From Minisyncoccota bacterium (GTDB lineage: Bacteria > Patescibacteriota > Minisyncoccia > JAHISW01 > Tagabacteraceae): a stretch of DNA of 64,000 nt. The stretch spans positions 11,936-75,935 of the forward strand of contig JAQTSC010000002.1 of NCBI GenBank assembly GCA_028711505.1. Reading direction: 5' to 3'. The notes beneath the pieces were generated by a model. That model was not told where the DNA came from, did not search any database, and saw nothing but the letters and a program-made list of their open reading frames with translations. Below are positions 1,167-40,611 of this stretch, piece after piece (position 1 is the first letter of the stretch; each line of letters opens with the position of its first letter). Made by a program: the position numbers and the translations under genes.

Positions 1167-1202
1167 AGGCCGGATAGCAATTATATTCTACCGGCCTTTT
1201 TC
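1167..1202. terminator. intrinsic terminator hairpin (GGCCGG...CCGGCC + T-run) ending the rpsF-ssb-rpsR operon; overlaps the recA stop codon
   Basis: Inverted repeat aGGCCGG(17-nt loop)CCGGCCt followed by TTTTTC on the + strand, convergent with recA. Confidence 0.45.
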
Positions 1203-2216
1203 TATGCTATAGAATTCTTTTATTTTTTTCGTTATCTCGTCAGCTGTTTTATTGTCCTCGCGCAGAAAAATTCTCGCCTTGTCATAGCCTACTCCCAATT
1301 TCAGGCTTCCATACGAATACGTAGTTCCTGATTTTTTTATTATTCCGGCTTTCTCGCCCAAATTAAGAAGTTCAGCGCTCCTTGAAATTCCTTCATCGTA
1401 CAAAAGGTCAAACTCGGCTTCCCTGAAAGGAGGCGCCACTTTATTTTTTACGACTTTCGCTTTTACCCTTCCGCCGATTATTTCATCACCTCTTTTTATC
1501 TGGGCTATTCTTCTCACGTCTATCCTCACGGAAGAATAAAATTTCAGCGCTTTTCCTCCCGGCGTGGTTTCCGGATTTCCGAACATCACTCCTATTTTCA
1601 TTCTAATCTGATTTATAAAAATCACGATTGTTTTGGATTTTGCGGATATTGCCGTAAGTTTGCGAAGCGCCTGCGACATAAGTCTTGCCTGGAGACCCAC
1701 GTGCGCGTCTCCCATCTCTCCTTCTATCTCTGCCCGCGGCGTTAAAGCGGCGACGGAATCTATCACGATTACATCGATTTTTCCGGAACGAACCAGGCTT
1801 TCTGTTATTTCAAGAGCCTGTTCTCCCGTGTCGGGCTGGGAGATAAGAAGATCGTCAACTTTTACGCCAAGTTTTTCCGCGTACACGGGATCCATCGCGT
1901 GCTCAGCGTCTATAAAAGAGCAGAGGCCTCCTTTTTTTTGAGCTTGAGCAAGAACATGGAGAGCCAGCGTGGTTTTACCCGAAGATTCCGGACCAAAAAT
2001 TTCAATAACTCTGCCGCGCGGAAGCCCGCCAAGCCCCAAGGCAACGTCTAAAGAAAGAGAGCCCGTAGAGATAACGTCCACATCAACTCTTTTCGTGTCG
2101 CCAAGCTTCATTATCGCGCCTTCACCGTATTTGCTTTTAATCCCTTCTATCACGGAATTTATGTCCGCTCCCATTGTCTTGGGTTCTTTTTTCGCTTTTG
2201 CTGTAAATTTAGCCAT
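1188..2216 (-). CDS. recA: recombinase RecA
   Basis: Walker A '[12 protein letters not shown]', RecA loops L1/L2, full-length 342-aa colinear RecA architecture. Confidence 0.95.
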
Positions 2217-4937: not shown

Positions 4938-5582
4938 TTAAATTTTTGTTCCCGCCAAAAAACTTCTGGCAAGTTCAAAAATTTCTTTTCCGTTTGACAC
5001 ATCCGCCTTGATGTCAGGCTCAATACCGCCCAAAAGGCACCTTCTCGTAAGAGGAGAAAAATATTTCATCAAGGATTTATCTCCCGCGGTCTTTTCCCCT
5101 ATTATAACCGCCCTGTGATTGTCCTGAAGCGAAGCGGCAAAAAGTTCCCCCGCGCCGGATGTTTGACGGCTGACTAAAATGATAACCTGGCCGTCAATCT
5201 GAAAATCAATATCTTCTTCCTCAAACTGGAAACTGTCGGCATTTACCGCGCTAAATCCGGATTTATTTTTTATGCTCTCAAATACGACAGTGGCATCCTC
5301 CGGCAAAAACATCCAGGCTGTTCTTAAAGCTTCGCTGTCTTGGCCGCCCGTACAATTCCGCAAATCAAAAATCCACCTTTCGCACCCGACCAAAGAGGCC
5401 CCGATGGAAAAACGCAAAAATTTTTGAGCGAAACCCCTGTCAAAACTCGGAACGGTTATTTTCGCGCATAACGGATCTTCGCAGCGAGCCAGTCCGGCGC
5501 CTGCGCCAAGCAAGAAAAAAAGAAGTATTATAAAAAGGAAAACGGCTGCCAAAACTTTTCCCCGCTTCTTGTTCTGAAACAT
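4938..5582 (-). CDS. S41-family C-terminal processing peptidase, minimal form without PDZ domain
   Basis: Signal/TM N-terminus. S41 core motifs 'DLRNCTGG', 'TSGAGELFAASLQDNHRAVIIGEKTAGDK' (Ser-Lys dyad context). Confidence 0.6.
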   Translation of the reverse strand: MFQNKKRGKVLAAVFLFIILLFFLLGAGAGLARCEDPLCAKITVPSFDRGFAQKFLRFSIGASLVGCERWIFDLRNCTGGQDSEALRTAWMFLPEDATVVFESIKNKSGFSAVNADSFQFEEEDIDFQIDGQVIILVSRQTSGAGELFAASLQDNHRAVIIGEKTAGDKSLMKYFSPLTRRCLLGGIEPDIKADVSNGKEIFELARSFLAGTKI

Positions 5583-5712
5583 AAACCCCTCCTTTTAGTT
5601 TCAGGTTTTTGAGCTGTTTATATGTCAAAAAATGCCTATTATTCTCTGGGCATTTTGGAACAAATTTAACACCAAGTCAAGCAAGAAAAATAAGCCGCGA
5701 GCAGCAAAATTC

Positions 5713-6699
5713 TTAAAGCGGAATTTTTTTTACTTCCACTTTAGGCCAGATTCCCCACTCTCCTTTTTTCAAAAGACCGGTCGTCGCTCCGAAATCCTGC
5801 ATGTTAGACGTGGCATTCGCCGTACCAAGCTGTATGGCATATTCAATACTCCCATTTTCAATAAAACCGGAAACGAAAGCCGAGCCGAAAGAATCCCCTG
5901 CTCCTGTCCGGTCAACCATCTCCGATTCCGGAATCCCCGCGGAATAAAGATCTTTCCCGTCGGAAACAACGACCCCATCCGGACCTTTCGTCATCACGGC
6001 AATGCCCTTTACCATTTCATCAAGCTTTTTAAAAATTCCTTTTTCGTCTTTGTAATCAACGCCCGCGAGCTCCGCCGATTCTTCCTGGTTTAAAATCAAA
6101 ATATCGATTTTATCCAAAACGGTTTTTAAAATTTCAGTATCTTTTTCATTCTTTAAACTGCCCGCCGGATTTGACGCCACCTTTATTCCGCTTTTTTCGG
6201 CAAATTCCATGAGCGGAACGAGCATCTCGTGACTATTCGCCGATAGTGAAGAAACATAAAACCATTTTGCTCCGAGCTTTTCAAACGGAATATCTTCTTT
6301 GGTAAGCTCATGGCAAGCGCCATATTTTTCCAAAATACTCCTGTCAACATTCGGGAGAGAAAGGACTACGGAAAAAGCCGTGGGGTATTTATCCGTTTCT
6401 TCCAGCAATTCCAAAGAAACGCCGTGCCTTGAAAGTTCTTTTTTGACCGCTTCGGCAAAAACATCTTTTCCTACCGATCCGAAATAAGCGGTTTTTAATC
6501 CTTGTTCGGAAAAAGTGCAGGCCGCGTTCGTGCCGCAGCCTCCCATTGACGCAAAGACCGAATCAATATGAATTTTTGAACCAAGAGGAACGCACAGCCC
6601 TTTTTTTGTCGCGAACTTTTCATCGTCAATTGCCACCAGCTTGTCGCTGGCCATAAATAAATCATAAGTCGCCGAACCGAAAGTTATAACGTCAAACAT
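5713..6699 (-). CDS. PfkB-family carbohydrate/nucleoside kinase (ribokinase-like)
   Basis: N-terminal GG motif region and C-terminal 'DRTGAGDSFGSAFVSGF' anion-hole/ATP motif characteristic of the ribokinase/pfkB family. Confidence 0.8.
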   Translation of the reverse strand: MFDVITFGSATYDLFMASDKLVAIDDEKFATKKGLCVPLGSKIHIDSVFASMGGCGTNAACTFSEQGLKTAYFGSVGKDVFAEAVKKELSRHGVSLELLEETDKYPTAFSVVLSLPNVDRSILEKYGACHELTKEDIPFEKLGAKWFYVSSLSANSHEMLVPLMEFAEKSGIKVASNPAGSLKNEKDTEILKTVLDKIDILILNQEESAELAGVDYKDEKGIFKKLDEMVKGIAVMTKGPDGVVVSDGKDLYSAGIPESEMVDRTGAGDSFGSAFVSGFIENGSIEYAIQLGTANATSNMQDFGATTGLLKKGEWGIWPKVEVKKIPL

Positions 6700-6729
6700 A
6701 TTATTTTTTTATTGAATAATAAAAAGACT

Positions 6730-7317
6730 CTAATTACTCAGATATTGGCATATTGTTACCCCCACGCCATTACTGTTTGGAACAGGTATACCGATTCCGC
6801 AAGATACGTTTTCTCCTTCCAGATACCAAAGAAGGAAAAAGCTTTTGCAAAAATTGTTCGGACGAAAAGAACAAGAATAAACATATCCCTGGAAACAGAT
6901 ATCCGGTCCTCCCCCTGCCCCGGAAGGCCCGCAAATAATTCCTTGGTCTCCCGTATAATTTTTAAAATCAACATAGGGAGAAAGCGCACTGTTAAGCACC
7001 GATGATTCGCTATACGATACCCCGTTAAATCCGCATTTGTCATCGTCGTAATCTCCCAAGCAATGCGGTCCGGTATCTCCCGGGTCTGGATATTCTCCAT
7101 TTCCTGAAATTGCCAAATTTATGGCTTTTACATATTGATTTATGTCCGATATTCTTTCTGAATTTCTGGAATCTATTCTTACGCCATTATACAAAACAAG
7201 AGCGACAGAGCTCAACAATCCCACAATTCCGATGACAACAAGAAGCTCCAAAAGAGTAAAAGCCGCGTTTCTCTTTTTTATGACAAAACGCCGGGAAAAA
7301 ACCAGTTTCAAGTTCAT
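6730..7317 (-). CDS. type IV pilin-like protein (class III signal peptide, Cys-rich variable C-terminus), copy 1
   Basis: Prepilin-type N-terminus 'KKRNAAFTLLELLVVIGIVGLL' (FTLLE motif; A instead of G at -1). Four or more conserved Cys in the C-terminal region. Confidence 0.7.
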   Translation of the reverse strand: MNLKLVFSRRFVIKKRNAAFTLLELLVVIGIVGLLSSVALVLYNGVRIDSRNSERISDINQYVKAINLAISGNGEYPDPGDTGPHCLGDYDDDKCGFNGVSYSESSVLNSALSPYVDFKNYTGDQGIICGPSGAGGGPDICFQGYVYSCSFRPNNFCKSFFLLWYLEGENVSCGIGIPVPNSNGVGVTICQYLSN

Positions 7318-7324
7318 ATTTTAA
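7027..7324. repeat. direct repeat copy A (~300 bp, 5' third of the pilin gene; period 657 bp)
   Basis: Six-frame ORFs 7142..7324 and 7799..7981 translate identically and the two pilin N-termini are identical for 97 codons. Boundaries approximate. Confidence 0.75.
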
Positions 7325-7389
7325 TTTTCAACCTCTTAAGTACGCTTCTTCGCGCTTTTTCTTTCACGTATTATCGGATAAGAAAATTA

Positions 7390-7974
7390 TCAATGGCCTA
7401 CATATGAACATCCTGTTATGGTAGCGCCGCCCCTCATTTCATGTGAAATACCGATTCCGCAAGAAGCGTCTGCTCCTTCCATAAGCCATTGGATGACAAT
7501 TGTTTTGCAAAAATTATTCGGACGCTCAGAACAAAAATAGATATATCCTTCGGAGCACTCCTCCGGGGCTTCTCCGCCAGGAAGTCCGCAGACCATGGCT
7601 TTATTGCCGGCATAAGTTTTCAAATCCAAATAAGGAGAAAGGATATTATTCAGCGTCTCCGATTCGGAATAATATGTCCCATTAAGTCCGCATTTGTCAT
7701 CGTCGTAATCTCCCAAACAATGCGGTCCGGTATCTCCCGGGTCTGGATATTCTCCATTTCCTGAAATTGCCAAATTTATGGCTTTTACATATTGATTTAT
7801 GTCCGATATTCTTTCTGAATTTCTGGAATCTATTCTTACGCCATTATACAAAACAAGAGCGACAGAGCTCAACAATCCCACAATTCCGATGACAACAAGA
7901 AGCTCCAAAAGAGTAAAAGCCGCGTTTCTCTTTTTTATGACAAAACGCCGGGAAAAAACCAGTTTCAAGTTCAT
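7390..7974 (-). CDS. type IV pilin-like protein, copy 2 (N-terminal 97 aa identical to copy 1, C-terminus divergent)
   Basis: Same prepilin leader and FTLLE motif. Identical to 6730..7317 through '...DYDDDKCG', then diverges while conserving the Cys positions. Confidence 0.7.
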   Translation of the reverse strand: MNLKLVFSRRFVIKKRNAAFTLLELLVVIGIVGLLSSVALVLYNGVRIDSRNSERISDINQYVKAINLAISGNGEYPDPGDTGPHCLGDYDDDKCGLNGTYYSESETLNNILSPYLDLKTYAGNKAMVCGLPGGEAPEECSEGYIYFCSERPNNFCKTIVIQWLMEGADASCGIGISHEMRGGATITGCSYVGH

Positions 7975-7981
7975 ATTTTAA
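7684..7981. repeat. direct repeat copy B (~300 bp, 5' third of the pilin gene)
   Basis: See copy A. Nucleotide-identical block offset by 657 bp. Confidence 0.75.
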
Positions 7982-8010
7982 AGATAGAAACGTTTTGAAA
8001 ATTCAACAAA

Positions 8011-9006
8011 TTATTTTCTCGCCAACGCTTTTTTAACCGCTTCTTTTATGTTCTCAACTCCCATTCCGAATTTTTCCAAAAGTTCATCCGGCTCGCCGGA
8101 TTCCCCGTATCTGTCGCGGACTCCCACAAATTCAATCGGCGCTGGAAATTCTTCAGATAAAATTTCCGCCACAGCCGAACCCATACCGCCATTAACCTGG
8201 TGTTCTTCAACGGTAACTACGGCTCCGGTTCTTTTTACGCTTTCCAAAATCGTATTTTTATCCATCGGCTTAATTGTGTGATTATTTATTACCTCCGCTT
8301 TAACCCCCTCTTTTTCAAGTTCCGCCGCGGCCAAAATCGCATTATGAACGAGCGGACCGCAAGCGATTATTGAGACTTGGGAATTTCCGCCCTCCGGCGA
8401 CCAAAAAATTTCCGCTTTTCCTATTTCAAACGGAGTTTCTTCGGTTGTCATAACCGGAGTTTTTTCACGCGCGAATCTTAAATAAACAGGGCCTTTGTAT
8501 TTTGCTGCCGCAAGCGTCGCTTTTTTTGTTTCTATGGAATCGCACGGCGCGATTATGACCAAGCCAGGCAAACATCTCGTTATGGCGATATCTTCAAGCG
8601 CCTGATGACTCATTCCATCAGGACCTACTGAAATCCCGGCATGAGCGCCTGCAATCTTAACATTGGCTTCGTTCTGCACGGCCCCACGAACCTGGCACCA
8701 ATTCAATCCCGGACTAAACACGGCATATGTCGCCAAAAAAGGCACTTTTCCGTCAAGGGCAAGGCCAACCGCGACATTCATCATATTTTGCTCCGCAATG
8801 CCCATTTCAATAAATCTGTCCGGAAACGCGCGCATAAATTCGGCGGAACGCGTTGATTCCGAAATATCGGCGCAAAGCGCAACGACATTCGGATCGTCTT
8901 TCCCCGCCAAAACAAGCCCTTCTCCATATCCAAAACGGGTTGGGATACGCTCAATTTTTTCCTTATCCAATAAATTCTGGCTCAGTTTTAAATTTTGATT
9001 TTGCAT
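8011..9006 (-). CDS. transketolase, C-terminal (pyrimidine-binding/C-terminal domain) subunit
   Basis: Matches the transketolase Pyr and C-terminal domains (EQNMMNVAVGLALDGKVPF...). Split-gene arrangement with the upstream N-terminal subunit. Confidence 0.85.
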   Translation of the reverse strand: MQNQNLKLSQNLLDKEKIERIPTRFGYGEGLVLAGKDDPNVVALCADISESTRSAEFMRAFPDRFIEMGIAEQNMMNVAVGLALDGKVPFLATYAVFSPGLNWCQVRGAVQNEANVKIAGAHAGISVGPDGMSHQALEDIAITRCLPGLVIIAPCDSIETKKATLAAAKYKGPVYLRFAREKTPVMTTEETPFEIGKAEIFWSPEGGNSQVSIIACGPLVHNAILAAAELEKEGVKAEVINNHTIKPMDKNTILESVKRTGAVVTVEEHQVNGGMGSAVAEILSEEFPAPIEFVGVRDRYGESGEPDELLEKFGMGVENIKEAVKKALARK

Positions 9007-9029
9007 GATATTAGACGGTAATTTTATAT

Positions 9030-9887
9030 TTATTCATAATCACTTTTTATTTTGCCGCAAAGAGACCTTAATTGCGCCAGCGCTTTTTCCGCTTCCTCGG
9101 GTTTTGGCACTTTGCCGTGCCAAGAGCAATCGAATTCCATAAAATCAATTCCTTTCCCGGGAATCGTATGGGCCAAAATCATAACCGGTTTTTCAAAAAC
9201 AGCTTTCGCCTCGTTGCAAGCGTTAACAATCGCTTCTATATTATGCCCGTCAACTTCGATAACGTGCCAGCCGAACGATTCGTATCTTTCGCGAAGCGGT
9301 TCTTTCGGCATAACGCTTTCTGTGTATCCGTCTATCTGAATATTATTTCTGTCCATGATAAAAGTGAGGTTGTCCAAATGCCATTTTCCGGCAAGCATAG
9401 CCGCTTCCCAAGTCATACCCTCGTCCATTTCGCCGTCGCCAACAAGACAATAAATCTGATGTTTCTTTTTGTTCATTTTCGCGGAAATAGCCATGCCAAC
9501 CGCTATGCCCTGACCAAAAGCCAAAGGTCCGGAACTGTTTTCTATCCCCGGAAGCGCTTTTCTGTGAGGATGTCCCTGCAAACGGCTGCCCATCTTGCGC
9601 AATGTTTTTAATTCTTCGGTCGGAAAATATCCGGCGCGAGCCATGGCCGCGTATTGCACAGGACAAATATGACCATTGGATAAAATAACCCTGTCGCGTT
9701 CTTCCCATGCCGGATTTTTCGGATCATGTTTCAACACTTCAAAATAAAGCGCGGTAAAAACATCCGCCATGCCCATAGGACCGGCAGAATGTCCGGATTT
9801 CGCTTCAACGAGCATATTGATAATATCCTCGCGAATTTGCCTTGCGGTATCGTCTAAGGATTTTAATCGTTCATCGGATAAATACAT
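9030..9887 (-). CDS. transketolase, N-terminal (thiamine-diphosphate-binding) subunit
   Basis: TPP-binding motifs 'SGHSAGPMGMADV', 'GDGEMDEG...NL' (GDG-X-N ThDP motif). Confidence 0.85.
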   Translation of the reverse strand: MYLSDERLKSLDDTARQIREDIINMLVEAKSGHSAGPMGMADVFTALYFEVLKHDPKNPAWEERDRVILSNGHICPVQYAAMARAGYFPTEELKTLRKMGSRLQGHPHRKALPGIENSSGPLAFGQGIAVGMAISAKMNKKKHQIYCLVGDGEMDEGMTWEAAMLAGKWHLDNLTFIMDRNNIQIDGYTESVMPKEPLRERYESFGWHVIEVDGHNIEAIVNACNEAKAVFEKPVMILAHTIPGKGIDFMEFDCSWHGKVPKPEEAEKALAQLRSLCGKIKSDYE

Positions 9888-9924: not shown

Positions 9925-10551
9925 TTATGCGTTCTTTAATTCTTCTACGGCCATTCCTATATCCTTTGCGGAAAAAATATACGATGCCGTAACCAAAATA
10001 TCGGCTCCGGCCTCAGCGGCTTTTTTAGCGGCTTCTTTATCTATTCCGCCGTCAACTTCTATTATAGCAGACGGACAATTTTCTTTTATGTGGATTATTT
10101 TATCAAGGCTTTCTTCTAAAAATGTTTGCCCGGCCAATCCGGCGCGGACTGACAAAATTTGAAAAATATCAACTTTTTCGTAAAAAGGCACGAGTCTGGT
10201 CCACGCAGTGTCCGGGGCTATGGCTATTCCGACTTCTTTTCCGGCTTTACGGCATTTATCCGCGACCAAAAAAGGGTCTTTCGCGGTTTCAAGCTGAAAA
10301 ATAATCCTGCTAATCGGCTCTATAAGCCAATCTTCAACTTTTTGGTCAATATCGTTTATCATCAAATGCGCCTCCAGTTTTAGAGGCGTTTTGATATCGG
10401 CTAAATCTTTCGGATTATGCCAAATAATATTTTGCGTAAAAGTGCCGTCGCAGACGTCTATCTGCGCCCATTCTGAATACGGCTCAATTAATTTTATCTG
10501 CCTTTTAACTTCCTCAAAAGATTCTGCGTTGATAGCGGGTATTATTTCCAT
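9925..10551 (-). CDS. rpe: ribulose-phosphate 3-epimerase-like TIM-barrel protein
   Basis: ~208 aa, 'IDVCDG' metal-binding segment, C-terminal 'VDGGI' phosphate-binding motif. Adjacent to the transketolase genes (non-oxidative pentose phosphate pathway). Confidence 0.65.
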   Translation of the reverse strand: MEIIPAINAESFEEVKRQIKLIEPYSEWAQIDVCDGTFTQNIIWHNPKDLADIKTPLKLEAHLMINDIDQKVEDWLIEPISRIIFQLETAKDPFLVADKCRKAGKEVGIAIAPDTAWTRLVPFYEKVDIFQILSVRAGLAGQTFLEESLDKIIHIKENCPSAIIEVDGGIDKEAAKKAAEAGADILVTASYIFSAKDIGMAVEELKNA

Positions 10552-11192: not shown

Positions 11193-11266
11193 GCCGGCGT
11201 AGCTCAGTCGGTTAGAGCATGGGACTCATAAACCCAAGGTCAGTGGTTCGATTCCACTCGCCGGCA
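11193..11266 (+). tRNA. tRNA with CAU anticodon (elongator Met or lysidine-type Ile2)
   Basis: Cloverleaf: GCCGGCG acceptor, D arm GCTC/GAGC, anticodon loop CTCATAA, T loop TTCGATT. 74 nt, no encoded CCA. Confidence 0.8.
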
Positions 11267-12380: not shown

Positions 12381-12452
12381 CGCGGGGAAGTGTAACGGTT
12401 GCACACGAGGCTCATAACCTTGTAGTAGTAGGTTCAATTCCTACCCCCGCAA
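12381..12452 (+). tRNA. initiator tRNA-fMet (CAU)
   Basis: CGCGGGG 5' acceptor with a C1:A72 mismatch (the bacterial initiator hallmark), anticodon loop CTCATAA, T arm GTAGG-TTCAATT-CCTAC. Confidence 0.75.
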
Positions 12453-12610
12453 CACAACAACAAAAAACATCCGCTTGCCGGGTGTTTTTTGTTGTTGCTA
12501 TTGAGGAACTAAGCGCGAAGAAAATACCACTTCAGGCGGAGAAAATAAAATAGAAAAAATTTATTAACCTATTCATTATAGGAAGGGGAAATCATTGTTT
12601 TTATTTTGAT

Positions 12611-17450: not shown

Positions 17451-18218
17451 TTATGTCCAAAAAAATGCCAAAAGAGAGCCGAAGACAAGAAACGGGCCGA
17501 AAGGAATTTTGCTCTTAAGCCCGTAGCCTTTTTTAAGCGAAATCAGCAAAAGCCCGATTATTGAGCCTACCCAAAACGCGAACAAAAATCCGAAAAATAC
17601 TTTTTCAAATCCCAAAAACCAGCCAAGACCTAAGGCGAGCTTGGCATCGCCAAAACCCATCCACTTTCCTTTTGACAAAAACCAAAGGACGGCAAAAAAA
17701 CCGCCAAAAAGAAATCCCGCTGACAAATCCAGAAGAAAATCGTAGAGGCTGAAACTTGAAAAATAAATCATGTAATTAAAAGCGAGCGCGTTGAAAAACC
17801 AAACATAACCGTTCGGAATTATAAAATGAAGAAAATCATAAACCGCGATAACGATTAGGATTGAAACAATAAGCCAAAGAAAAAACACGATCCCAAGCAA
17901 ATGGAAATTGGAAAATTGATTGAAAATTAAAAATTTAAAATTAAAAATCAGCAGGAACAACAGCCCCGTTATTGTTTCTAATATCGGATACTGCCAGGAA
18001 ATTTTGCTTTTGCACCCCCTGCATTTCCCTTTTTGCGCCAAAAAACTGAAAATCGGAAAAAGCTCCTTCCACTTTAATTTTTTTCCGCAGGAAAAACATT
18101 TTGAATTTCCCCAAAAAACGCCCTCGCCGGTGCCGCGCCTAAGTATAAGCACATTCAAAAAACTGCCTATGACAGACCCGAAGATAAAAACAATTATGCC
18201 AAGAACAACATTATTCAT
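17451..18218 (-). CDS. pilD: type IV prepilin leader peptidase (A24 family)
   Basis: N-terminal CxxC...CxxC zinc motif, conserved Asp-containing motifs (AVYDF; GFGDAKL), polytopic membrane protein. Confidence 0.85.
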   Translation of the reverse strand: MNNVVLGIIVFIFGSVIGSFLNVLILRRGTGEGVFWGNSKCFSCGKKLKWKELFPIFSFLAQKGKCRGCKSKISWQYPILETITGLLFLLIFNFKFLIFNQFSNFHLLGIVFFLWLIVSILIVIAVYDFLHFIIPNGYVWFFNALAFNYMIYFSSFSLYDFLLDLSAGFLFGGFFAVLWFLSKGKWMGFGDAKLALGLGWFLGFEKVFFGFLFAFWVGSIIGLLLISLKKGYGLKSKIPFGPFLVFGSLLAFFWT

Positions 18219-18326
18219 ATTCTAATTTTACCATATCTTTTTTATTTCTAAACACGGCGGCATAAACAGAAACCCAGCTCCTTATAAGGGGGCTGGGTTG
18301 CCTGTTTCAATGCAATCTGAAAGGAA

Positions 18327-18836
18327 TTACGGAGTTACGTCGTAGCAAGCATCAGTTCCTGCACCATCAGTCGCATCGCAGTCAGCGTCGTTTCCGTCAA
18401 AACCGAAGTCAGCTGAAGGAGACTTATCTGCATCATTATCAAGAGCAGCATTAGAAGTATCTTCTAGGACCGCTCCAAGATGGTAATAAAGACAGTTGCC
18501 CGCATCAGCCACGGCGCACGCGCCTCCAGCGCTGCTATCCAAATTATCATAAGCATAGCCTGCGAGAGAGCTAGGGTCAGTCGGAACTACAGCTATATAC
18601 GTAGGAGCAAGAGTAGACAATGCATCCGGATAACCAGTTTCAGTGGCGCACGCTGCGTCATAACAAAGCTCAAGCGCCAATTGAATTTGTTTTAAGTCCG
18701 CAATTCTTCTAGCATCTCTTGATTTCTGCCTCGCGCTGTTCAATGACGCCAAAACTACTGACGCCAAAATACCAATGATGGCGATAACCACGAGGAGTTC
18801 AATTAAAGTAAAGCCCTTATTTCTTTTGCTAAACAT
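18327..18836 (-). CDS. pilA: type IV major pilin (PilA-like)
   Basis: Canonical prepilin N-terminus 'KGFTLIELLVVIAIIGILASVVLASL' (G|FTLIE). C-terminal Cys pairs. Confidence 0.85.
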   Translation of the reverse strand: MFSKRNKGFTLIELLVVIAIIGILASVVLASLNSARQKSRDARRIADLKQIQLALELCYDAACATETGYPDALSTLAPTYIAVVPTDPSSLAGYAYDNLDSSAGGACAVADAGNCLYYHLGAVLEDTSNAALDNDADKSPSADFGFDGNDADCDATDGAGTDACYDVTP

Positions 18837-18962
18837 TTTTTAATTCGGTATTAAGTTAATCGACCTTTTGGTTAATTGCTTAATTACAAATTCATTATAA
18901 CGTTTCTGACTTTATTTTTCACGTTTTGTTGTGGATAAGTTTCTTTGCAAGACAACTCCGCA

Positions 18963-20171
18963 TTATACCGCCATCGCGATGTTGTAAATCGGCACCAAAA
19001 CAGAAGCCAGAAGAAGCCCGACACCGACGCCCAAAACAACGGTCATCGCCGGCTCAATAAGACCTATCATTGTTTCAAGAGCGTCGTCCATTTCTCTTTT
19101 ATAGAAACCCGCCAGCGTTTTAAATATAAAATCCAATTTCCCTGTTTCTTCCCCTATTTTTATCATCTGTCCCATAAGAGGCGAAATTTCATGATACCTG
19201 GAAAAACTTTCGGAAATAGTGGCGCCTCCTTTAACCGATTCTATCGTATCTTTTAAAATCGCCCTGTAAATCGGGCTCTCAACCACATCCGATGTTATTT
19301 CCAAAGACCTTATCATGCTCACGCCTCCGGTAATCAAAGTTTCCAGGTTGTCGGCAATACGGGCAAGATAAAGCTTTTGGTATAAAGTTCCAAGATAAGG
19401 AATAGAAAGCTGGAGAGAAGCGACTTTAAGACGGCCATCGGGTGTTTTTGAATATCTCCATAAAAGGAAAACTCCTACTGCCAAAAAAAGGAAGAAAAAA
19501 GCTCCGTAATTTCTCAAAATATCGCTTGTGTACATTACCGCTTTCGTGTAAAGAGGAGCCTCCTGCCCGCTTTCTTTAATAATATCGGTGAGTTTGGGAA
19601 TAACAACAACCATCATTACCACAATTACACCGATAAAAGCGGCAACAACGAAAGCTGGATAGATAAGCGCTTTTTTCGCTTTGCCTATAAGTTCGGCATT
19701 GCGTTCCAGATAATCAGCCAAATGTTTGAAAATTTCATCCAATTTTCCGGATTCTTCCCCTGTCTTCACCATGCTTACGTAAAAATTAGAGAAAACTTTC
19801 GGATATCGCGAAAGCGCTTCCGCGATCCTTGAGCCGCCGCTTATATCCACGACAATGCCATTTAGAACCTCGCGCATAGCAGGATTTTCAATTTCGGCAG
19901 AGAGAAGTTTAAAAGCGCTCAATACTGAAACTTTCGCCTCAAAAAGAGTCGCTATCTGTCTTGAAAGCATCACTATATCTTTTCTTTTCACTTTTTTAAA
20001 AGAAAAAATATCCTTGTCAAAAAAAGGAATCCTGCTTGATTTTGAAACAAGGGAGATTACTATCAGGCCTCTTCTTTGGAGAGAACTTAAGGCGATTTCC
20101 TGGCTTGACGCTTCCAGTTCGCCTTCTTTAATTTCTCCGTTAGGCGTTGTCGCTTTGTAATAAAAAAGCAT
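18963..20171 (-). CDS. pilC: type IV pilus assembly platform protein PilC (GspF family)
   Basis: Two T2SSF-domain repeats with 3 TM segments. 402 aa. Located between pilA and pilT. Confidence 0.9.
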   Translation of the reverse strand: MLFYYKATTPNGEIKEGELEASSQEIALSSLQRRGLIVISLVSKSSRIPFFDKDIFSFKKVKRKDIVMLSRQIATLFEAKVSVLSAFKLLSAEIENPAMREVLNGIVVDISGGSRIAEALSRYPKVFSNFYVSMVKTGEESGKLDEIFKHLADYLERNAELIGKAKKALIYPAFVVAAFIGVIVVMMVVVIPKLTDIIKESGQEAPLYTKAVMYTSDILRNYGAFFFLFLAVGVFLLWRYSKTPDGRLKVASLQLSIPYLGTLYQKLYLARIADNLETLITGGVSMIRSLEITSDVVESPIYRAILKDTIESVKGGATISESFSRYHEISPLMGQMIKIGEETGKLDFIFKTLAGFYKREMDDALETMIGLIEPAMTVVLGVGVGLLLASVLVPIYNIAMAV

Positions 20172-20177
20172 AGAAAA

Positions 20178-21254
20178 TCAAGAATTTAAATCAACGAGCG
20201 CTTTGGGATTTAAAGAAAAAGCAAGCGCGTTGTCCATGCTTATTTCACCGCTTCTCACAAGATTCAAAAGTGAACTATTCAAGCTTATCATCCCTTCTGA
20301 CGAACTCGTTTCTATAACTATATCTATCTCGTGCGTGCGACCTTCGCGTATCAAATTCCGAATCGCCGTGTTTGCTATAAGAAGTTCGTACGCGGGGATA
20401 AGCCCTCCGGAAATCCTCGGCACAAGCCTTTGGGAAAAAATGCCAAGCAAACTTCCCGCAAGCTGCAGGCGAATCTGGTTTTGCTGGTCCGCCTGGAAAG
20501 AATCTATAATTCTGTCCACGGTCTGGCTTGCGTTGTTGGTGTGAAGCGATGAAAAAACCATATGCCCGGTTTCCGCCGCGGTTACGGCAATTGCGATACT
20601 GTCCGGATCTCTCATCTCGCCTATCATTGCCACGTCCACGTCTTGACGGAACATGGCGCGAAGGGCGCGCGGAAAATCTTCCGCGTCAGTCCCCACTTCG
20701 CGCTGATCTATTGTTGATTTGTCTTGTATGAATAAATATTCTATAGGATCTTCAATCGTCACAATATGCTGATTCATTTCATGATTTATTATATCTATCA
20801 TCGCGGCAAGGGTGGTTGATTTACCGTGCCCGGTAGGACCGACTACAAGGAAAAAACCTTGTTGCTTTAAAGCAAATGTCCTTAAAAGATCCGGCACATT
20901 CAGGTCTTCAAGATTTTTTATTTCGGAAGGAATAAAACGCATCGCCAAACCCATGTAGCCTTTCTGCCTGAAAGCGTTACATCTGAAACGAGCTTTATTC
21001 GCGGCATTATACGCGAAATCCAAATCTCCTTTTGCCAAAAGTTCCGTTTTTTGACTTTCTTTTATCATGGAAAAAACGATTCCTTCTATCAATTCCGGCG
21101 TCATCATCGGCTTCTTTACCAAAGGAACCAGTGTTCCGGAAACCCTCACGGTCGGGTGCCTGCCAACGGAAAGATGCAAATCAGACCCGCCTGATTCAAC
21201 GACGGAAGTAACCAAATCATTAATTTCTTTTAAATAATCGATTGAAGGCATCAA
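20178..21254 (-). CDS. pilT: twitching-motility/retraction ATPase PilT
   Basis: PilT-type secretion ATPase: Walker A 'GPTGHGKSTTLAAMI', Asp box, His box. ~358 aa, lacking the PilB N-terminal domains. Confidence 0.9.
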   Translation of the reverse strand: MMPSIDYLKEINDLVTSVVESGGSDLHLSVGRHPTVRVSGTLVPLVKKPMMTPELIEGIVFSMIKESQKTELLAKGDLDFAYNAANKARFRCNAFRQKGYMGLAMRFIPSEIKNLEDLNVPDLLRTFALKQQGFFLVVGPTGHGKSTTLAAMIDIINHEMNQHIVTIEDPIEYLFIQDKSTIDQREVGTDAEDFPRALRAMFRQDVDVAMIGEMRDPDSIAIAVTAAETGHMVFSSLHTNNASQTVDRIIDSFQADQQNQIRLQLAGSLLGIFSQRLVPRISGGLIPAYELLIANTAIRNLIREGRTHEIDIVIETSSSEGMISLNSSLLNLVRSGEISMDNALAFSLNPKALVDLNS

Positions 21255-21323
21255 AATAATTTAAGAAGATAAAATACCGATTATAAAATTACAATTTTAT
21301 ATTTTTGTTCCAAAATTTCCGTT

Positions 21324-21767
21324 TTAAGCTCTCTTCCTCTCCAATACCGACTTGATTTTTTCGACAACTTCAGTGGGCGTAAAATTCGCTTTTACGATGT
21401 AATCCGAAGCGCCAAGCTTTATTCCTTTGTCTATATCGTCTTTTTGCCCAAGATTGCTTAAAATGATTATCGGAAATTTTCCGATAATACCTTCCGTCTT
21501 AAGCGCTTCTAAAAATTCCAGACCGGTCATTTTCGGCATGACAACATCCAAAAGCATGATATCCGGCCGAAATCCGCCTTTTAATTTATTCAGAGCGTCA
21601 TCCGTGCTTTTTGAAGATTCCACACTAAAGCCGGATGATTTGAACTTTACCGAATACATGTCCAAAAGAAAATCATCGTCGTCTAAAAGGAAAACCGTAA
21701 TTACCTTATCCATTGTTTTTTCGGACTCGGGCGAAAGATCGCTTGCGGTTGTGTTTCCTTGAGACAT
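21324..21767 (-). CDS. response regulator receiver-domain protein (CheY-like, stand-alone)
   Basis: REC domain motifs: acidic pocket 'LLDDDD', phospho-acceptor 'LLDVVMP', and 'LSNLG...K'. Confidence 0.8.
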   Translation of the reverse strand: MSQGNTTASDLSPESEKTMDKVITVFLLDDDDFLLDMYSVKFKSSGFSVESSKSTDDALNKLKGGFRPDIMLLDVVMPKMTGLEFLEALKTEGIIGKFPIIILSNLGQKDDIDKGIKLGASDYIVKANFTPTEVVEKIKSVLERKRA

Positions 21768-21801
21768 AATTTTATTTTTGATTAAGAGTGCCGCCGTATC
21801 A

Positions 21802-23511
21802 TCATATTATTTCCCTCAACTGTTCAAGCCCTATGGTGCCGTCTAAAACCTTTAAAATTCCGTCTTGCCTCATTGTTATCATCCCCTGGCTGAATGCTTC
21901 TTTCATTATAGCCGATTCTCCCGGATTTGTTAAAATTATTTTTTCAAGTTCTGGCGTCATCGACATAACTTCAAAAATTCCGATCCTCCCCCTGGTGCCT
22001 CTTGGACACTGCGCGGAAGGCAAGGCTTGATAAATAGTATCGGGGATTTCGACCTTTTCCCTTACTCCGGCAGGCATTTGCTTTATCTCTTCTTCAAGCA
22101 TAGCCCTTACTGTGCCGGAAACTTTTACTCCTTTTTTTGATTCGGGACAAAGAGTCCCGACAAGACGCTGAGAAATTGCCGAAATCAAAGTTGCCGGAAT
22201 AAGAAACGGGTCAACTCCCATATCTATAAGACGCGGAATAACGCCGGTGGCGGTATTCGTGTGAAGCGTTGAGAAAACAAGGTGACCGGTCAAAGCAGAC
22301 TGCACCGCCAGCCGCGCTGTTTCTTTGTCTCGTATCTCGCCAACCATGATTACATCCGGGTCTTGCCTTAAAATTGACCTTAACCCGCTCGCGAAATCAT
22401 AACCGATCTCCGGCCTTACCTGCGATTGGCTCATTCCTTCCAAATTATATTCAATAGGATCTTCCAAGCTCACAGCGTTGCTTTTTTCCTTATCCAAAAG
22501 ATTGAGCATCGCGTAGAGAGTGGTAGTTTTTCCGGAACCGGTGGGACCGGTTATCAAGATCATTCCATAGGGCTTTTCAAGCCCTTCTTTTACCATTTTT
22601 AAATTTCTTCCCAAAAGACCGACTTCTTCCAATTTTTTGAGCCCCTTAGTGGCGTCCAAAATTCTTATCACTATTTTTTCTCCGTAAAAAGTCGGAAAAG
22701 TGGAAACGCGAAAATCAATCCTTTTACCGCCGACGCCCGCCTCAAAACGACCGTCCTGCGGTTTTCTTTTTTCGTCCAATTTCATGTTAGTAAGAATTTT
22801 TATTCTCGCGACAACCGCCTCGTGCACTTTTTTCGGCAAAGTAAGACTGGTGTACAAAACGCCGTCAACCCTGAACCTGACTTTCAGCCGGTCGTAAAGC
22901 GGTTCTATGTGTATATCCGAAGCTCTTCCTTCTATGGCATGCCTTATGATAACGGCAACCATTTTTGTAATCGGCGCCTCTTCGGTGGAAGTGGCCATTT
23001 CTTCCGCCTGTTTTATGTCTTCCGGCAAAGTCTTCTGCGCGATAACCGATTCCAATTCATCAAGAATTTTTACTGTTTCGCCGCCAAGACTTTGATAGCT
23101 ATTCAGGGCGTTTTTCAAATCAGTCGAAGAAATCAGAAACAGCTTGAACGGCATATTCAATTTCGAAGATAAAAACTGAAGAGCTTCTCGGGCCTCCATA
23201 TCGTCCGGATTTACAATCCCCACTTCCATAACTCCCTCTTCAACGCCAAGCGGCGCGAATTTGTAAAAACGAACGGATTCTTCGGGGATATTTTTTATTA
23301 TTTCAAAAGGTAAAGTCAAAGAACCCTCCACTTTTTTTATCGGCAACCCGAAAACTTCGCTTTTTGCCTTAGTTATTTCATCTGCGGAGATATTTCGCTT
23401 AACAAGAATTTCTTCAAGGTCAGCCCCTGTTTCGTCGGCCTCTTTTTTGCTCTTAAAAAGAAGGTCATTGGAAATAATATTATTTTTTACTAAAACTTCT
23501 CCAAAAGTCAT
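21802..23511 (-). CDS. pilB: type IV pilus assembly (extension) ATPase PilB/GspE
   Basis: N-terminal T2SSE_N-like domain, Walker A 'GPTGSGKTTTLYAML', tetra-Cys motif (CPESKKG...C). Confidence 0.9.
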   Translation of the reverse strand: MTFGEVLVKNNIISNDLLFKSKKEADETGADLEEILVKRNISADEITKAKSEVFGLPIKKVEGSLTLPFEIIKNIPEESVRFYKFAPLGVEEGVMEVGIVNPDDMEAREALQFLSSKLNMPFKLFLISSTDLKNALNSYQSLGGETVKILDELESVIAQKTLPEDIKQAEEMATSTEEAPITKMVAVIIRHAIEGRASDIHIEPLYDRLKVRFRVDGVLYTSLTLPKKVHEAVVARIKILTNMKLDEKRKPQDGRFEAGVGGKRIDFRVSTFPTFYGEKIVIRILDATKGLKKLEEVGLLGRNLKMVKEGLEKPYGMILITGPTGSGKTTTLYAMLNLLDKEKSNAVSLEDPIEYNLEGMSQSQVRPEIGYDFASGLRSILRQDPDVIMVGEIRDKETARLAVQSALTGHLVFSTLHTNTATGVIPRLIDMGVDPFLIPATLISAISQRLVGTLCPESKKGVKVSGTVRAMLEEEIKQMPAGVREKVEIPDTIYQALPSAQCPRGTRGRIGIFEVMSMTPELEKIILTNPGESAIMKEAFSQGMITMRQDGILKVLDGTIGLEQLREII

Positions 23512-23571
23512 AAAATAAAAAATTCAAAATTACTGTCTTGCAGTTTGTAATAGGCGAATCGCGGAAATTTA

Positions 23572-23913
23572 TTATATCCCATTCGCGGGAGCGAAAGGAT
23601 TTTCTCTTCCTATTTTGTCAGGGTAAGGAATGACAGGCGTAAGATCTTTAAGCGCTTTAAAATCAGACCGGCCAAAAAATCCAGTATCAATCTCTATGTT
23701 TCTTATGCGCGTTACTATCTCGACAAAATCCTTGCCTACTATACTTTCGTCAGCAAGAATGGCCGGAGAACCAAGATTTATTGAATCGATTGAAGGCAAA
23801 GCCACGGAGCCCGAAGAACTGCCGCCTTTGAAAAAATTCGCATAAATATAGTAGCTAGCCACAGCCAAAATCGCCAAAGACAGAATAAAAATTAAATTGC
23901 GTTTATTAAACAT
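23572..23913 (-). CDS. hypothetical pilus-assembly-associated protein (PilP-like position)
   Basis: 113 aa with a single N-terminal TM. Position between pilB and pilO-like genes. Confidence 0.3.
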   Translation of the reverse strand: MFNKRNLIFILSLAILAVASYYIYANFFKGGSSSGSVALPSIDSINLGSPAILADESIVGKDFVEIVTRIRNIEIDTGFFGRSDFKALKDLTPVIPYPDKIGRENPFAPANGI

Positions 23914-23924
23914 TTTATCGGTTT

Positions 23925-24479
23925 TTATTTTTTGAAATAAGCGTTGGCGGTCATGGAAAATTTATGCACGTTGGTTTCGCCACTCTCGGAAGAAAATTCT
24001 ATTCCCGTAATATCCATGAAACGCAGACTGCGCTGTATCTCGTCAAAAAAAGATTTAGCCGCCGGATAAGAAGCCGAAAAAAACATATTTACCTGTAGCA
24101 CAGAGCGGCTTTCGCCGCCATTTTCTCCGGGCAAATTGCTAGCGGCCTGAGGTTTTGATTCGGCCTGGGTCTGAAGCTGTTCTATAATCACTCCCGACGC
24201 CGACGCGATATTTGAAAGTTCCACCATAAGTCTTAAGCTATCGGCGTTTTCAGGCACCATCTTGGAAAGACGCTCCAAATTTTTCGGGTCTATGGAATTA
24301 TATTTATCCAAAAGTTCATCTCTTATTTTTTTTGTTTCGCGCGATTCGCTAAGCGCCGAATCAAGCGCAGCCTTGTGCGTTTTTAAAGTTTTTATTTGGT
24401 CTAATGCCGGTTTCGTCCAAGAAAGGAAGACTCCGACGGCGGCCAACAGCATTATTATTATTGTAATTCCTCTGCCCAT
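23925..24479 (-). CDS. PilO-like pilus assembly protein
   Basis: Single N-terminal TM followed by a coiled-coil and a periplasmic domain. Gene order pilM-N-O. Confidence 0.45.
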   Translation of the reverse strand: MGRGITIIIMLLAAVGVFLSWTKPALDQIKTLKTHKAALDSALSESRETKKIRDELLDKYNSIDPKNLERLSKMVPENADSLRLMVELSNIASASGVIIEQLQTQAESKPQAASNLPGENGGESRSVLQVNMFFSASYPAAKSFFDEIQRSLRFMDITGIEFSSESGETNVHKFSMTANAYFKK

Positions 24480-24501
24480 GTGTTTAAGATTTAGATCATT
24501 A

Positions 24502-25119
24502 TCATTTATTTATCTCTTCGCTTATTACCAAACTCAAGGAAAAAGACACTTCACCTTTTTCCGTCAAATTAAAATTTGAAAAAGAAAAATCTTCTATGTT
24601 TTTATTTTTATTGAAAACATCCGATTGCTGAGCCAAAGCCTCATAATTTTTAGCCTTCCCCGAAAGCTGCACTTTTATGCTATTTTGCTCTCCTTCGCTT
24701 GAAACGACTTTTGTTTTTCCTTTTTCATTTCCTACCGCTTTGCCGTAAGAATAAGAAAAGTTTGAAAAATACACATCCTTGACCGTCGTCTCTTCAACCA
24801 GCTTAAAAACCCTCGTCGGATAAAGATGATTCCCCAAAAGAGCGCCTGCGTCGGGTATTGAAAAAGAAAGATTCTCCATCTGCGCTATAAGAGACAATTC
24901 AAACGCAGCCTTTGCCCTTTCCAAAGAAGCGGAAAGATCGGTTATCTGCTGGCTTATCATTCGCTTATATAAAAGAGATCCGCCGAAAGCCAAAAGAGAA
25001 ATAGTCAAAAGAAAAACCGAGATTTTCATTAAAAAACCGGAGCTAACCTTGCGGTAATAATCTTTCCCCGTTGAAAAGGAACTTTTTGGCATGAAAGATA
25101 TTTTTCCGGAAGTTTCCAT
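24502..25119 (-). CDS. PilN-like pilus assembly protein
   Basis: Short cytoplasmic N-terminus, single TM, coiled-coil. Immediately downstream of pilM. Confidence 0.45.
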   Translation of the reverse strand: METSGKISFMPKSSFSTGKDYYRKVSSGFLMKISVFLLTISLLAFGGSLLYKRMISQQITDLSASLERAKAAFELSLIAQMENLSFSIPDAGALLGNHLYPTRVFKLVEETTVKDVYFSNFSYSYGKAVGNEKGKTKVVSSEGEQNSIKVQLSGKAKNYEALAQQSDVFNKNKNIEDFSFSNFNLTEKGEVSFSLSLVISEEINK

Positions 25120-25127
25120 AAAAATTT

Positions 25128-26264
25128 TTACAAATCCCTCATCGCGAGACCTGTTGCCACCGCGAACACAGGGCTAATTTGTTTTATGCTTTCCTGAAGG
25201 AAAAGCGGGTATTCTGTTTTTGAAAAAGGGTCGGCAAGCGAAACTTCAACTCCCAAGTTTTTCACCGCCATATCGGTTATTCCCTTTAGAAGCGCGCCGC
25301 CGCCGATTAAAACAATTTTACTCACTGAATTCCCGTATTTTCTTCCGTAAGCAAGCGACATCTGTTTTGATTCGGCAAAAATAAAACTTAAAACAGTTTC
25401 CATTACATTCACGAATTCGCGATACTCCGGCCTCGGCGAAAGACCTATCTCCTGTTTCATCTCCTCCGCCCTTTCAAAACTTATTTTTAATGAATTGGCG
25501 ATGGCGGTTGTTATCGCCTGTCCTCCTTTGTCGACGGCATGTGTCATTCGCAACGCTCCCTTATCTATAACGCTTATCTTTGTAGACGAAGCGCCCAAAT
25601 CAATCAGCATAAACGGAGCTGTCTGTCTGAATATGGAAGAACGCCACTCGCTAAAAACTTCTATCTCAAACGCTTTAACTTTCATTCCGGCTTTTGAAAT
25701 TATATGCTGATATTTCATAATCACTTCCCTTTGAATCGCCGCAAGAAGCACTTCAACCATCTGTTTTTTTTCTGTTTTTCCTCCGGAAGAAAGAAGTTGT
25801 TGTTCTTCCTCTCCTGTTTCATCCGAACCCGCGTCAAGAACCCACCAATCAAGGTCAACTTCGTTCAAGGGGACCGGAATATATTTTCTGGCTTCAAAAC
25901 CTATCATCTCATTCATATTCTTTCCTCCTTCCACCAAAGGAATTTTTATCGTAGTCAAAAAACTGCTTTTCACCGGAATAGAAACAATCGCGTCTTTAGC
26001 GCCCGCTCCCGATTCTTTGGCCAAATCCATTATCATGGAAACCGCCGCTTCCTCTGAAAGTTGAGCGTTCTGCCCTATTGGACGATTCGCGTACGGCCCG
26101 GTGGCAAGTTCTCCGTATGTTTCAAGGATCGCTTTTTCTTTTTCTTTTTTTAGCTGAACTATTTTCACCGATGAACTGCCGATATCAATACCAATAACTC
26201 TTTGGTCTTTCTGCCAAAATTTTAAATCAGGGGAAAGTGTCTTACCGAATAATGTAAAAGCCAT
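25128..26264 (-). CDS. pilM: type IV pilus assembly ATPase-fold protein PilM (actin-like)
   Basis: Actin/FtsA-like fold: 'GIDIGSSSVKIV' phosphate-1 motif, 'LIDLGASSTK', 'LIGGGALLKGI'. Confidence 0.8.
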   Translation of the reverse strand: MAFTLFGKTLSPDLKFWQKDQRVIGIDIGSSSVKIVQLKKEKEKAILETYGELATGPYANRPIGQNAQLSEEAAVSMIMDLAKESGAGAKDAIVSIPVKSSFLTTIKIPLVEGGKNMNEMIGFEARKYIPVPLNEVDLDWWVLDAGSDETGEEEQQLLSSGGKTEKKQMVEVLLAAIQREVIMKYQHIISKAGMKVKAFEIEVFSEWRSSIFRQTAPFMLIDLGASSTKISVIDKGALRMTHAVDKGGQAITTAIANSLKISFERAEEMKQEIGLSPRPEYREFVNVMETVLSFIFAESKQMSLAYGRKYGNSVSKIVLIGGGALLKGITDMAVKNLGVEVSLADPFSKTEYPLFLQESIKQISPVFAVATGLAMRDL

Positions 26265-29813: not shown

Positions 29814-30332
29814 TTATCTTAAAGCCACGGAACTTTGAAGATTAATAACATCCGATCCGCCGCTGCTTCTAACACCGGGTTCAAGTTTAAGAATTATAGT
29901 GACAAACGTCCTGTCTGGAGACGTATAGTCTCTTACATAAAAAGCTCCCGAGACTTTCACTGCGCCTTCCGGGGTCACATCAAAAACAGGGACAGTAGAC
30001 GGCGGTTTATAAAAATAAAGCCCGACATCTCCAAATTTATAGACCAAATTTTCTCCGGCTGAATTCGTAATGTCCAAAGTAGACCCGTCTTCCGAAACAG
30101 AGTTTACGACGCTTGTCCTCAATTCCCTTGTTAAAAATTCCAGAGTATAACGTCCGGTTTCATAAAGGTTTTGGACTAAAAATACTTTGCGCTGAGTTTT
30201 GACCACGGAAATTGAAACAGCCGTGATACTCAAAACAAAAGCGCTGAAAATCGCCAAAGAAACGAGGGTTTCTATAATCGTAAATCCCGCCAAAAATTCA
30301 ATATCCTTCTTTTTTAATGTTTTAAGCTTCAT
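29814..30332 (-). CDS. type IV pilin-like minor pilin
   Basis: Prepilin motif 'LAGFTIIETLVSLAIFSAFVL' (G|FTIIE). Confidence 0.65.
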   Translation of the reverse strand: MKLKTLKKKDIEFLAGFTIIETLVSLAIFSAFVLSITAVSISVVKTQRKVFLVQNLYETGRYTLEFLTRELRTSVVNSVSEDGSTLDITNSAGENLVYKFGDVGLYFYKPPSTVPVFDVTPEGAVKVSGAFYVRDYTSPDRTFVTIILKLEPGVRSSGGSDVINLQSSVALR

Positions 30333-30350
30333 GCTTCAGTTTTAAAATTT

Positions 30351-30875: not shown

Positions 30876-30885
30876 AAATTTTATT

Positions 30886-31495: not shown

Positions 31496-31534
31496 CAAAA
31501 AACATTCCGGCCGCCGATAAGCGCAGCCGGAATG
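31496..31534 (-). terminator. intrinsic terminator after large adhesin-like gene copy B (minus strand)
   Basis: Hairpin CATTCCGGCtgcgcttatcggcgGCCGGAATG followed by TTTTTTG on the minus strand. Part of the duplicated unit. Confidence 0.5.
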
Positions 31535-33522: not shown

Positions 33523-33535
33523 ACCTGTTGTGGAT

Positions 33536-40593: not shown

Positions 40594-40611
40594 TACACAT
40601 CCCCCCTTATT

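Follow-up and report, generated by a model that had tools for sequence, protein, structure and literature searches.

Tandem type IV pilin genes with a near-identical 5′ module and divergent 3′ modules in an uncultured Paceibacteria bacterium

Two adjacent type IV pilin genes were identified in a 64,000-nucleotide stretch of DNA (hereafter the window; positions 11,936 to 75,935 of contig JAQTSC010000002.1, assembly GCA_028711505.1) from an uncultured Paceibacteria bacterium of the candidate phyla radiation (CPR). Both genes, termed here B (the upstream copy) and A (the downstream copy), are intact. They are almost identical from just upstream of the start codon through codon 96 and diverge abruptly thereafter. 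This pattern is probably the product of a lineage-specific duplication, fast divergence of the 3′ halves and gene conversion that recently affected the first 295 bp, which would have left interchangeable pilin subunits with different surfaces. Coordinates for the pilin pair, its surroundings and related loci are presented in Table 1.

A shared 5′ tract in two adjacent pilin genes

A preliminary description of the locus had proposed a duplication with a 657-bp period, in which the first ~97 codons of both genes were nucleotide-identical. The two start codons do lie 657 nt apart on the same strand, and nucleotide alignment upheld near-identity over 96 codons, although this was not strict. Exact identity began 7 nt 5′ of the ATG and extended for 264 nt, up to a single synonymous mismatch at coding nt 258 (TGT/TGC, Cys86), after which a further 30 nt were identical. 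The shared tract totalled 295 nt with this one mismatch, and residues 1–96 of the two proteins are identical. Divergence beyond the tract was abrupt, not evenly spread. The maximum chi-square breakpoint fell after coding nt 288, with 1/288 differences before it and 105/297 after it (Fisher p = 1.2e−34), and the observed maximum chi-square of 120.8 was attained in 0/2000 permutations (≤27.3). The mismatch within the tract (B 7717, A 7060) and the position where the divergent part first differs (nt 289: B 7686, A 7029) are 31 nt apart. The conversion could truly have ended at nt 257, in which case the next 30 nt, coding for the conserved LGDYDDDKCG, would owe their identity to some other cause; or else the nt 258 mismatch could be a mutation later than the conversion.

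In comparison to the 5′ part, the 3′ modules shared 65% nucleotide identity and 47/99 residues (48%), with one 1-codon indel. Synonymous divergence (dS, synonymous substitutions per synonymous site; Nei-Gojobori) was 0.015 in codons 1–96 versus 0.80 from codon 97 to the end. Among codons whose residue is conserved, synonymous changes occurred in 1/96 of those in the 5′ part and 14/47 of those in the 3′ part (p = 4e−7). Because both dS and these conserved codons show the same step, the 5′ and 3′ parts must differ in coalescence time, and recombination is therefore required; purifying selection on the protein is insufficient. The involvement of recombination, suspected in the preliminary description, is thus borne out. 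The ratio of 0.015 to 0.80 suggests that the age of the conversion does not exceed ~2% of that of the duplication.

The 3′ modules also diverged rapidly at the protein level. Non-synonymous divergence (dN) was 0.40, giving a dN/dS of ~0.5 that rose to 0.85 in the last third. Residue replacement reached 52% at a dS (~0.80) where typical proteins stay ~90% identical, so the pilin heads have evolved fast, by relaxed or diversifying selection, which two sequences cannot separate. A concentration of substitutions in loops was rejected, as loops (25/51 residues changed) and secondary-structure elements (26/47) had changed equally.

Both copies passed the PF07963 (N_methyl; 27.9 bits, cutoff 21.2) and TIGR02532 (22.8 bits, cutoff 16.3) models, confirming their assignment as type IV pilins. 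The predicted cleavage site lies between KKRNAA and FTLLELLVVIGIVGLL (FTLLELLVV) and is followed by a hydrophobic stretch, with Glu24 at position +5 counted from Phe20; this Glu is invariant in 89 family members. The −1 residue is Ala19 in both copies, in place of the usual Gly. At this position the family alignment has Gly in 78/89, Ala in 9/89 and Ser in 1/89 sequences, making the Ala of the tandem pilins unusual, not unique. AlphaFold gave confident pilin models of the same topology for both proteins (predicted local distance difference test score for A, 89.6), each with a ~50-residue N-terminal α-helix followed by a β-sheet globular domain (lollipop fold). The 5′ module codes for the leader, the whole of helix α1 and the first loop, which contains Cys86 and Cys95.

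As proposed, the C-terminal halves differ in sequence and keep their cysteine spacing, and the overall architecture is one of a constant N-terminal and a variable C-terminal part. All eight Cys of B (86, 95, 129, 140, 148, 156, 172 and 189) occur in A, shifted by +1 past the indel, and two of the eight fall in the identical part. Across the 89-sequence alignment, Cys86, Cys95 and Cys172 never vary, while 88/89 members have Cys189; the 148/156 pair occurs in ~80% and the 129/140 pair in ~16%. Core Gly, Tyr and Trp residues are likewise retained in both copies. With a 3′ dN/dS of ~0.5, conserved Cys and core residues and confident models, both copies look functional.

The two proteins are catalogued at NCBI from an 86.7-kb contig of a metagenome-assembled genome labelled ‘Candidatus Pacebacteria/Paceibacterota’. 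They belong to an uncharacterised family of 165–200-residue, Cys-rich pilins. A profile search of a word-indexed database returned thousands of matches, and an exhaustive profile search (1.84 billion cluster representatives) returned 41 below 1e−30 and 6525 below 1e−10. Nearly every match with a named source came from Patescibacteria (Taylor-, Staskawicz- and Yonathbacteria, Paceibacterota). The 3′ halves of A and B grouped together and were mutually nearest (48% identity, 107 bits). In comparisons with 242 other members of the family, which included representatives from the exhaustive search, values did not exceed 44% identity and 77 bits. The nearest homologues (on contigs L001, L002 and L005) were single-copy. 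One homologue (P0003, 49% identical) shares its locus with a PfkB gene that is 45% identical to the PfkB of the window, and the homologue on L005 (38% identical) adjoins a transketolase subunit gene. No related genome with an orthologous pilin pair turned up, and scans of genomes and metagenomes for alleles in other samples gave distant single-copy homologues only. Exact look-ups of both pilins, PfkB and two guessed partial products gave no match; only the transketolase retrieved a contig (L012, discussed below). A word-index search with the 3′ half of A alone gave zero candidates and was uninformative, having also missed A itself (P0002).

Tandem or near-tandem pairs of this pilin family were found at four further, unrelated loci (five with the present locus), and in every tandem pair the 5′ part was more similar than the 3′ part. 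The pair on L006 had exact runs of 47 and 98 nt in the helix-coding region and a dS of 0.34 (5′) versus 0.77 (3′), a second, independent and patchier instance of 5′ homogenisation. The three older pairs were saturated in dS, and hence uninformative in this respect. In several lineages, members of the family stand away from the pilus machinery and beside central-metabolism genes, often as tandem pairs; recorded neighbours were thioredoxin reductase and enolase, pyruvate phosphate dikinase and PfkB, transketolase, and ATP synthase. This adjacency may be due to chance in small, dense genomes or to co-expression.

The spacer between B and A showed no significant similarity to either flank by local alignment. 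No relic of a duplication unit was found in the spacer or flanks (351/1000 and 129/1000 shuffles attained the observed score), and the spacer had no terminator-like site and no notable RNA structure (z = −1.5). A candidate ribosome-binding site, AAGAGG, lies 14 nt upstream of copy A. Copy B has no such motif of its own, from which nothing can be concluded given that the motif is present in only 4/33 window genes. Identical 60-aa open reading frames (ORFs) run antisense within both tract copies (7142-7324 and 7799-7981, plus strand); they are most likely incidental to the repeat and not genes.

Table 1 Positions of the tandem pilin genes, their modules and neighbours, recombination and pilus genes in the window, and pilin pairs on other contigs.
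Feature	Sequence	Position	Strand	Details
Pilin gene B (upstream copy)	window	7390..7974	minus	194 aa; NCBI MDD5032739.1
Pilin gene A (downstream copy)	window	6730..7317	minus	195 aa; NCBI MDD5032738.1; P0002; ORF call with B's family matches
Spacer between B and A	window	7318..7389	minus	72 nt, unique sequence
Homogenised 5′ module in B	window	7687..7981	minus	7 nt 5′ of ATG plus codons 1-96
Homogenised 5′ module in A	window	7030..7324	minus	1 mismatch/295 nt versus B module
Divergent 3′ module of B	window	7390..7686	minus	codons 97-194 plus stop; β-sheet globular half, 6 Cys
Divergent 3′ module of A	window	6730..7029	minus	codons 97-195 plus stop
Split transketolase, C-terminal subunit	window	8011-9006	minus	36 nt upstream of pilin pair
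PfkB-family sugar kinase	window	5713-6699	minus	30 nt downstream of pilin pair
recA	window	1188..2216	minus	PF00154 RecA, E = 5.8e-138
RecG	window	36636-38861
PilD	window	17451-18218	minus	A24_N_bact/Peptidase_A24
Operon pilin	window	18327-18836	minus	N_methyl; 6 Cys
PilC	window	18963-20171	minus	T2SSF
PilT	window	20178-21254	minus	T2SSE
Response regulator	window	21324-21767	minus	in pilus gene set
PilB	window	21802-23511	minus	T2SSE
PilO-like	window	23925-24479	minus	PilO
PilM	window	25128-26264	minus	PilM_2
Tandem pilin pair	L006/L007	L006 4001-5162		thioredoxin reductase, pilin, pilin, enolase; two samples
Tandem pilin pair	L008/L009	L008 3377-4549		flanking genes as L006/L007; several samples
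Tandem pilin pair	L010	3405-4588		adjoining ATP synthase operon
Near-tandem pilin pair	L011	4001-5999		pilin, unrelated gene, pilin

Origin of the pattern and alternative histories

The history that best accounts for these data begins with a lineage-specific tandem duplication, which would have given two pilin copies. Their 3′ halves, coding for the exposed β-sheet part, would then have diverged fast in protein while the fold and all Cys were retained. Finally, the 5′ 295 bp, coding for the class III leader, the α1 assembly helix and the first disulfide loop, would recently have been overwritten by non-reciprocal homologous recombination between the copies, either by RecA-type interlocus gene conversion or, equivalently, by unequal crossing-over. 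The gene for RecA, the presumed mediator, and that for RecG are both present in the window. Purifying selection may keep the 5′ module the most alike, above the identity needed for RecA strand exchange, such that it would be re-homogenised at times; once diverged, the 3′ modules would escape conversion, in keeping with the standard model of such conversion.

A different history places the duplication itself in the recent past, followed by replacement of one 3′ half with a diverged allele from another strain or species, through crossovers in the conserved 5′ module and the downstream flank. The sharp breakpoint and the step in dS from 0.015 to 0.80 fit such an import equally well, and the window codes for competence-type functions (type IV pilus and RecA). 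Allelic replacement is a classic occurrence at pilin loci. We nevertheless consider import unlikely. Each 3′ half was closest to that of the other copy, ahead of all 242 family members, the GC content of the 3′ halves (44% and 43%) matches that of the window (42.6%), and the flanks carry no trace of a second crossover. The absence of a donor counts only weakly in this respect, because the lineage is very sparsely sampled.

That the tandem arrangement is an assembly artefact, with two strain alleles of one pilin gene laid out in series by the metagenome assembler, is very improbable. The source is a metagenome-assembled genome, the exact repeat of 264–295 nt exceeds typical k-mers and the exact A and B proteins were found on a single contig only. 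However, a 1363-nt Logan contig (L012, run SRR22315508), 100% identical to window positions 9314..7952, stops exactly 30 nt into the shared tract, which equals k−1 for k = 31. Logan contigs are built from a de Bruijn graph of k = 31 in which each 31-mer is unique (PMC12424806), and a stop at this point is expected only where reads enter the shared segment from two left contexts. Two alleles of one gene would form a bubble that branches at the right edge only, while L012 breaks at the left edge. Furthermore, each copy has a distinct upstream context and its own stop codon, the 72-nt spacer consists of unique sequence and a single base distinguishes the two repeats. Independent assemblies from several other lineages and samples also contain tandem pairs of this family.

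Pilus assembly and surface variation

Of the attachment organelles known in CPR/Patescibacteria, which live on other microbes, type IV pili are the principal ones. Approximately 10 kb from the tandem pilins, the window carries a complete, monoderm-type pilus gene set, identified by Pfam matches (17451-26264), and the tandem pilins are presumed to be processed and assembled by this machinery. The head family of the pilin encoded in this operon differs from that of the tandem pair. A separate cluster of pilin-like genes (29814-31464) codes for putative minor pilins. The combined Gly, Ala, Ser and Thr content (GAST) was 38% in the operon pilin and 28–29% in the tandem pair. By the GAST criterion, taken from work on Saccharibacteria pilins (PMC11623550), the major subunit is more probably the operon pilin, and the two tandem pilins resemble ‘orphan’ pilins.

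Since the leader, cleavage site, Glu5 and filament-core helix are identical, A and B should be interchangeable in assembly; PilD, PilB, PilC and PilM would be expected to treat both identically. The two pilins may then substitute for one another or mix in one filament, presenting two head surfaces. We infer co-assembly, and any difference in binding between A and B, from the sequences; alternative binding specificities, as raised in the preliminary description, are plausible on the same basis. The pair would offer natural ‘same stalk, different head’ variants for a comparison of binding, within a widespread Cys-rich Paceibacteria pilin family that tends toward tandem pairs. More generally, the locus would be a clean case of partial gene conversion from an ultra-small genome, and it shows how the exposed part of a pilin can diverge fast while recombination keeps the assembly part unchanged.

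Several points weigh against this combined account of conversion and interchangeable subunits. The exact pair is known from one genome only, and it would fit conversions of either direction and of differing number and age. A recent whole-gene duplication with foreign 3′ import gives the same pattern, and the boundary of the tract could reflect chance, not selection. The run that yielded L012 may be the source data of the metagenome-assembled genome, in which case that contig is independent in algorithm only. With Ala in place of Gly at −1, processing of both prepilins has to be assumed; Strom and Lory are said to have found, in 1991, that PilD partially tolerates Ala at this position. Lastly, the low GAST suggests that A and B are low-abundance and not major pilins, making co-polymerisation of the two as major subunits uncertain.

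The preliminary description likened the locus to antigenically variable pilins. Under that reading, surface variation would be programmed or semi-programmed, with the 295-bp direct repeats driving deletion to a hybrid gene, re-duplication or shuffling of 3′ cassettes, by analogy with pilE/pilS antigenic variation or the loss of pilA in Francisella. With 1 mismatch and a distance of 657 bp, the repeats should suit RecA well, and the window encodes this enzyme; RecA could delete the interval between them, leaving a single hybrid gene that places copy A under the upstream context of B, and could also amplify the interval. Deletion of a pilin between direct repeats is known in Francisella (PMC2941502), CPR pili mediate host attachment (PMC11623550), such that variation could be useful, and another tandem pair of surface-protein genes in the window is also mosaic. 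Against this, there are two copies only, both complete genes with start codons. A search for silent 3′ cassettes with tblastn and blastn, using both genes against the 64-kb window, recovered, apart from the two complete genes themselves, just two unrelated pilin N-termini and no promoterless cassettes. No guanine quadruplex (G4) motif (G3+N1-7 ×4) occurred on either strand of the whole window. No inverted repeats flanked the genes within 5500-9500, where only two, weak and distant, were found, and the immediate neighbours (PfkB kinase and transketolase subunit) are not recombinases. Moreover, the 3′ dS of 0.8 implies that the modules have long coexisted without exchange or loss. The antigenic-variation reading is thus only weakly supported, no dedicated surface-variation machinery came to light in the window, and programmed variation at this locus is quite improbable.

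A further reading, itself distinctly unlikely, is a two-module system in which recurrent RecA-driven conversion keeps the assembly module (leader, α1 and first disulfide loop) identical, selection diversifies the exposed modules for binding to different host-cell surfaces, and the long direct repeats allow populations to switch reversibly between one and two genes. If true, this would be a minimal, cassette-free route to variation in surface or host range in obligate episymbionts, and it would recur across the family, in which tandem pairs occupy at least five loci, two of them with 5′ conversion tracts.

Three further systems were considered and rejected. Targeting by a diversity-generating retroelement was rejected for the lack of an adenine bias at the 106 mismatches (adenine in 26% of cases in copy B and 21% in copy A) and for the presence of all 12 substitution types and an indel. 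An invertible segment of the Moraxella tfpQ/tfpI type, with Piv, does not fit direct repeats that lack flanking inverted repeats and have no recombinase as a neighbour. The recently described Pam pili of CPR (bioRxiv 10.64898/2026.03.03.709456) form by donor-strand exchange and have no relation to the present pilins.

The mosaic surface-protein pair lies on the minus strand at 31564-33522 and 33604-34878 (region 31499-34898) and codes for proteins of 652 and 424 aa. Both contain PKD and Ig-like domains, and the longer gene has an extra segment of ~228 aa that holds a LamG domain found only in its product. Over 852 nt, comprising the 3′ ends and 65 nt of downstream flank, the two genes are 96% identical; 503 nt at their 5′ ends are 88% identical. 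This mosaic suggests that recombination between tandem surface-protein genes is active in this genome.

Two other features of the window were recorded. ARAGORN identified a tRNA-Ile with anticodon TAT (UAU) at 40530-40602 on the minus strand, in addition to two tRNA-Met(CAT) genes (11193-11266 and 12381-12453). Most bacteria read AUA by a lysidine-modified CAU tRNA. A Shine-Dalgarno-like motif was present 6–18 nt upstream of only 4/33 confidently identified genes. Most gene starts were preceded by A/T-rich sequence, several with a TATAAT-like box ~10–20 nt from the ATG (9925-10551, 25128-26264), which hints that genes in the window may have short or absent leaders.

Comparison with known systems

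The nearest characterised parallel to the tandem pilins is PilE1/PilE2 of Streptococcus sanguinis, two neighbouring major subunits of a type IV pilus in a monoderm (PMC10628169; PMC6497953) that have an identical α1 and polymerise stochastically into one heteropolymeric pilus with a mosaic surface (PMC10628169). Like PilE1 and PilE2, A and B are adjacent paralogues with identical α1. However, PilE1 and PilE2 share extensive identity over the whole protein, whereas the 3′ halves of A and B are only 48% identical. The present pair also differs in its 8 Cys and low GAST and in its location, flanked by transketolase and sugar kinase genes ~10 kb away from the pilus operon.

Orphan pilins have been described in the Saccharibacteria strain TM7x, in which PilJ and PilK are encoded off the machinery loci and have a GAST like that of intracellular proteins (PMC11623550). 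The tandem pilin genes are similarly placed apart from the pilus machinery and have a low GAST. This likeness concerns location and GAST; PilJ and PilK come from a different CPR class and are single genes.

With Neisseria pilE/pilS the locus shares a constant N-coding region and a variable C-region bounded by conserved Cys, together with RecA-dependent conversion as the mechanism presumed here. Neisseria, in contrast, has many silent, 5′-truncated and promoterless pilS donors and a G4 upstream of pilE, and conversion there affects the variable part. In the present pair both copies are complete, the window holds neither cassettes nor a G4, and the constant part appears to have been converted. 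In Francisella tularensis, pilA has been lost in strains via direct-repeat-mediated deletion (PMC2941502). Direct repeats in and around adjacent pilin genes offer a comparable substrate for recombinational pilin loss, although deletion was observed in Francisella strains and is only a predicted possibility here.

Interlocus conversion from which a diverged region ‘escapes’ has been described for the tandem lipoprotein clusters of Staphylococcus aureus (PMC2568036) and treated in models (PMC3966223). There, as apparently here, non-reciprocal recombination homogenises part of adjacent paralogues, leaving a sharp synonymous step and a diverged part that persists. No essential difference separates the two cases beyond the present one being a CPR pilin example with an unusually clean single breakpoint. 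As both the mechanism and the architecture are well known in other bacteria, the tandem pilins illustrate no new principle, and instead extend a familiar process to a new example among the pilins of CPR bacteria.

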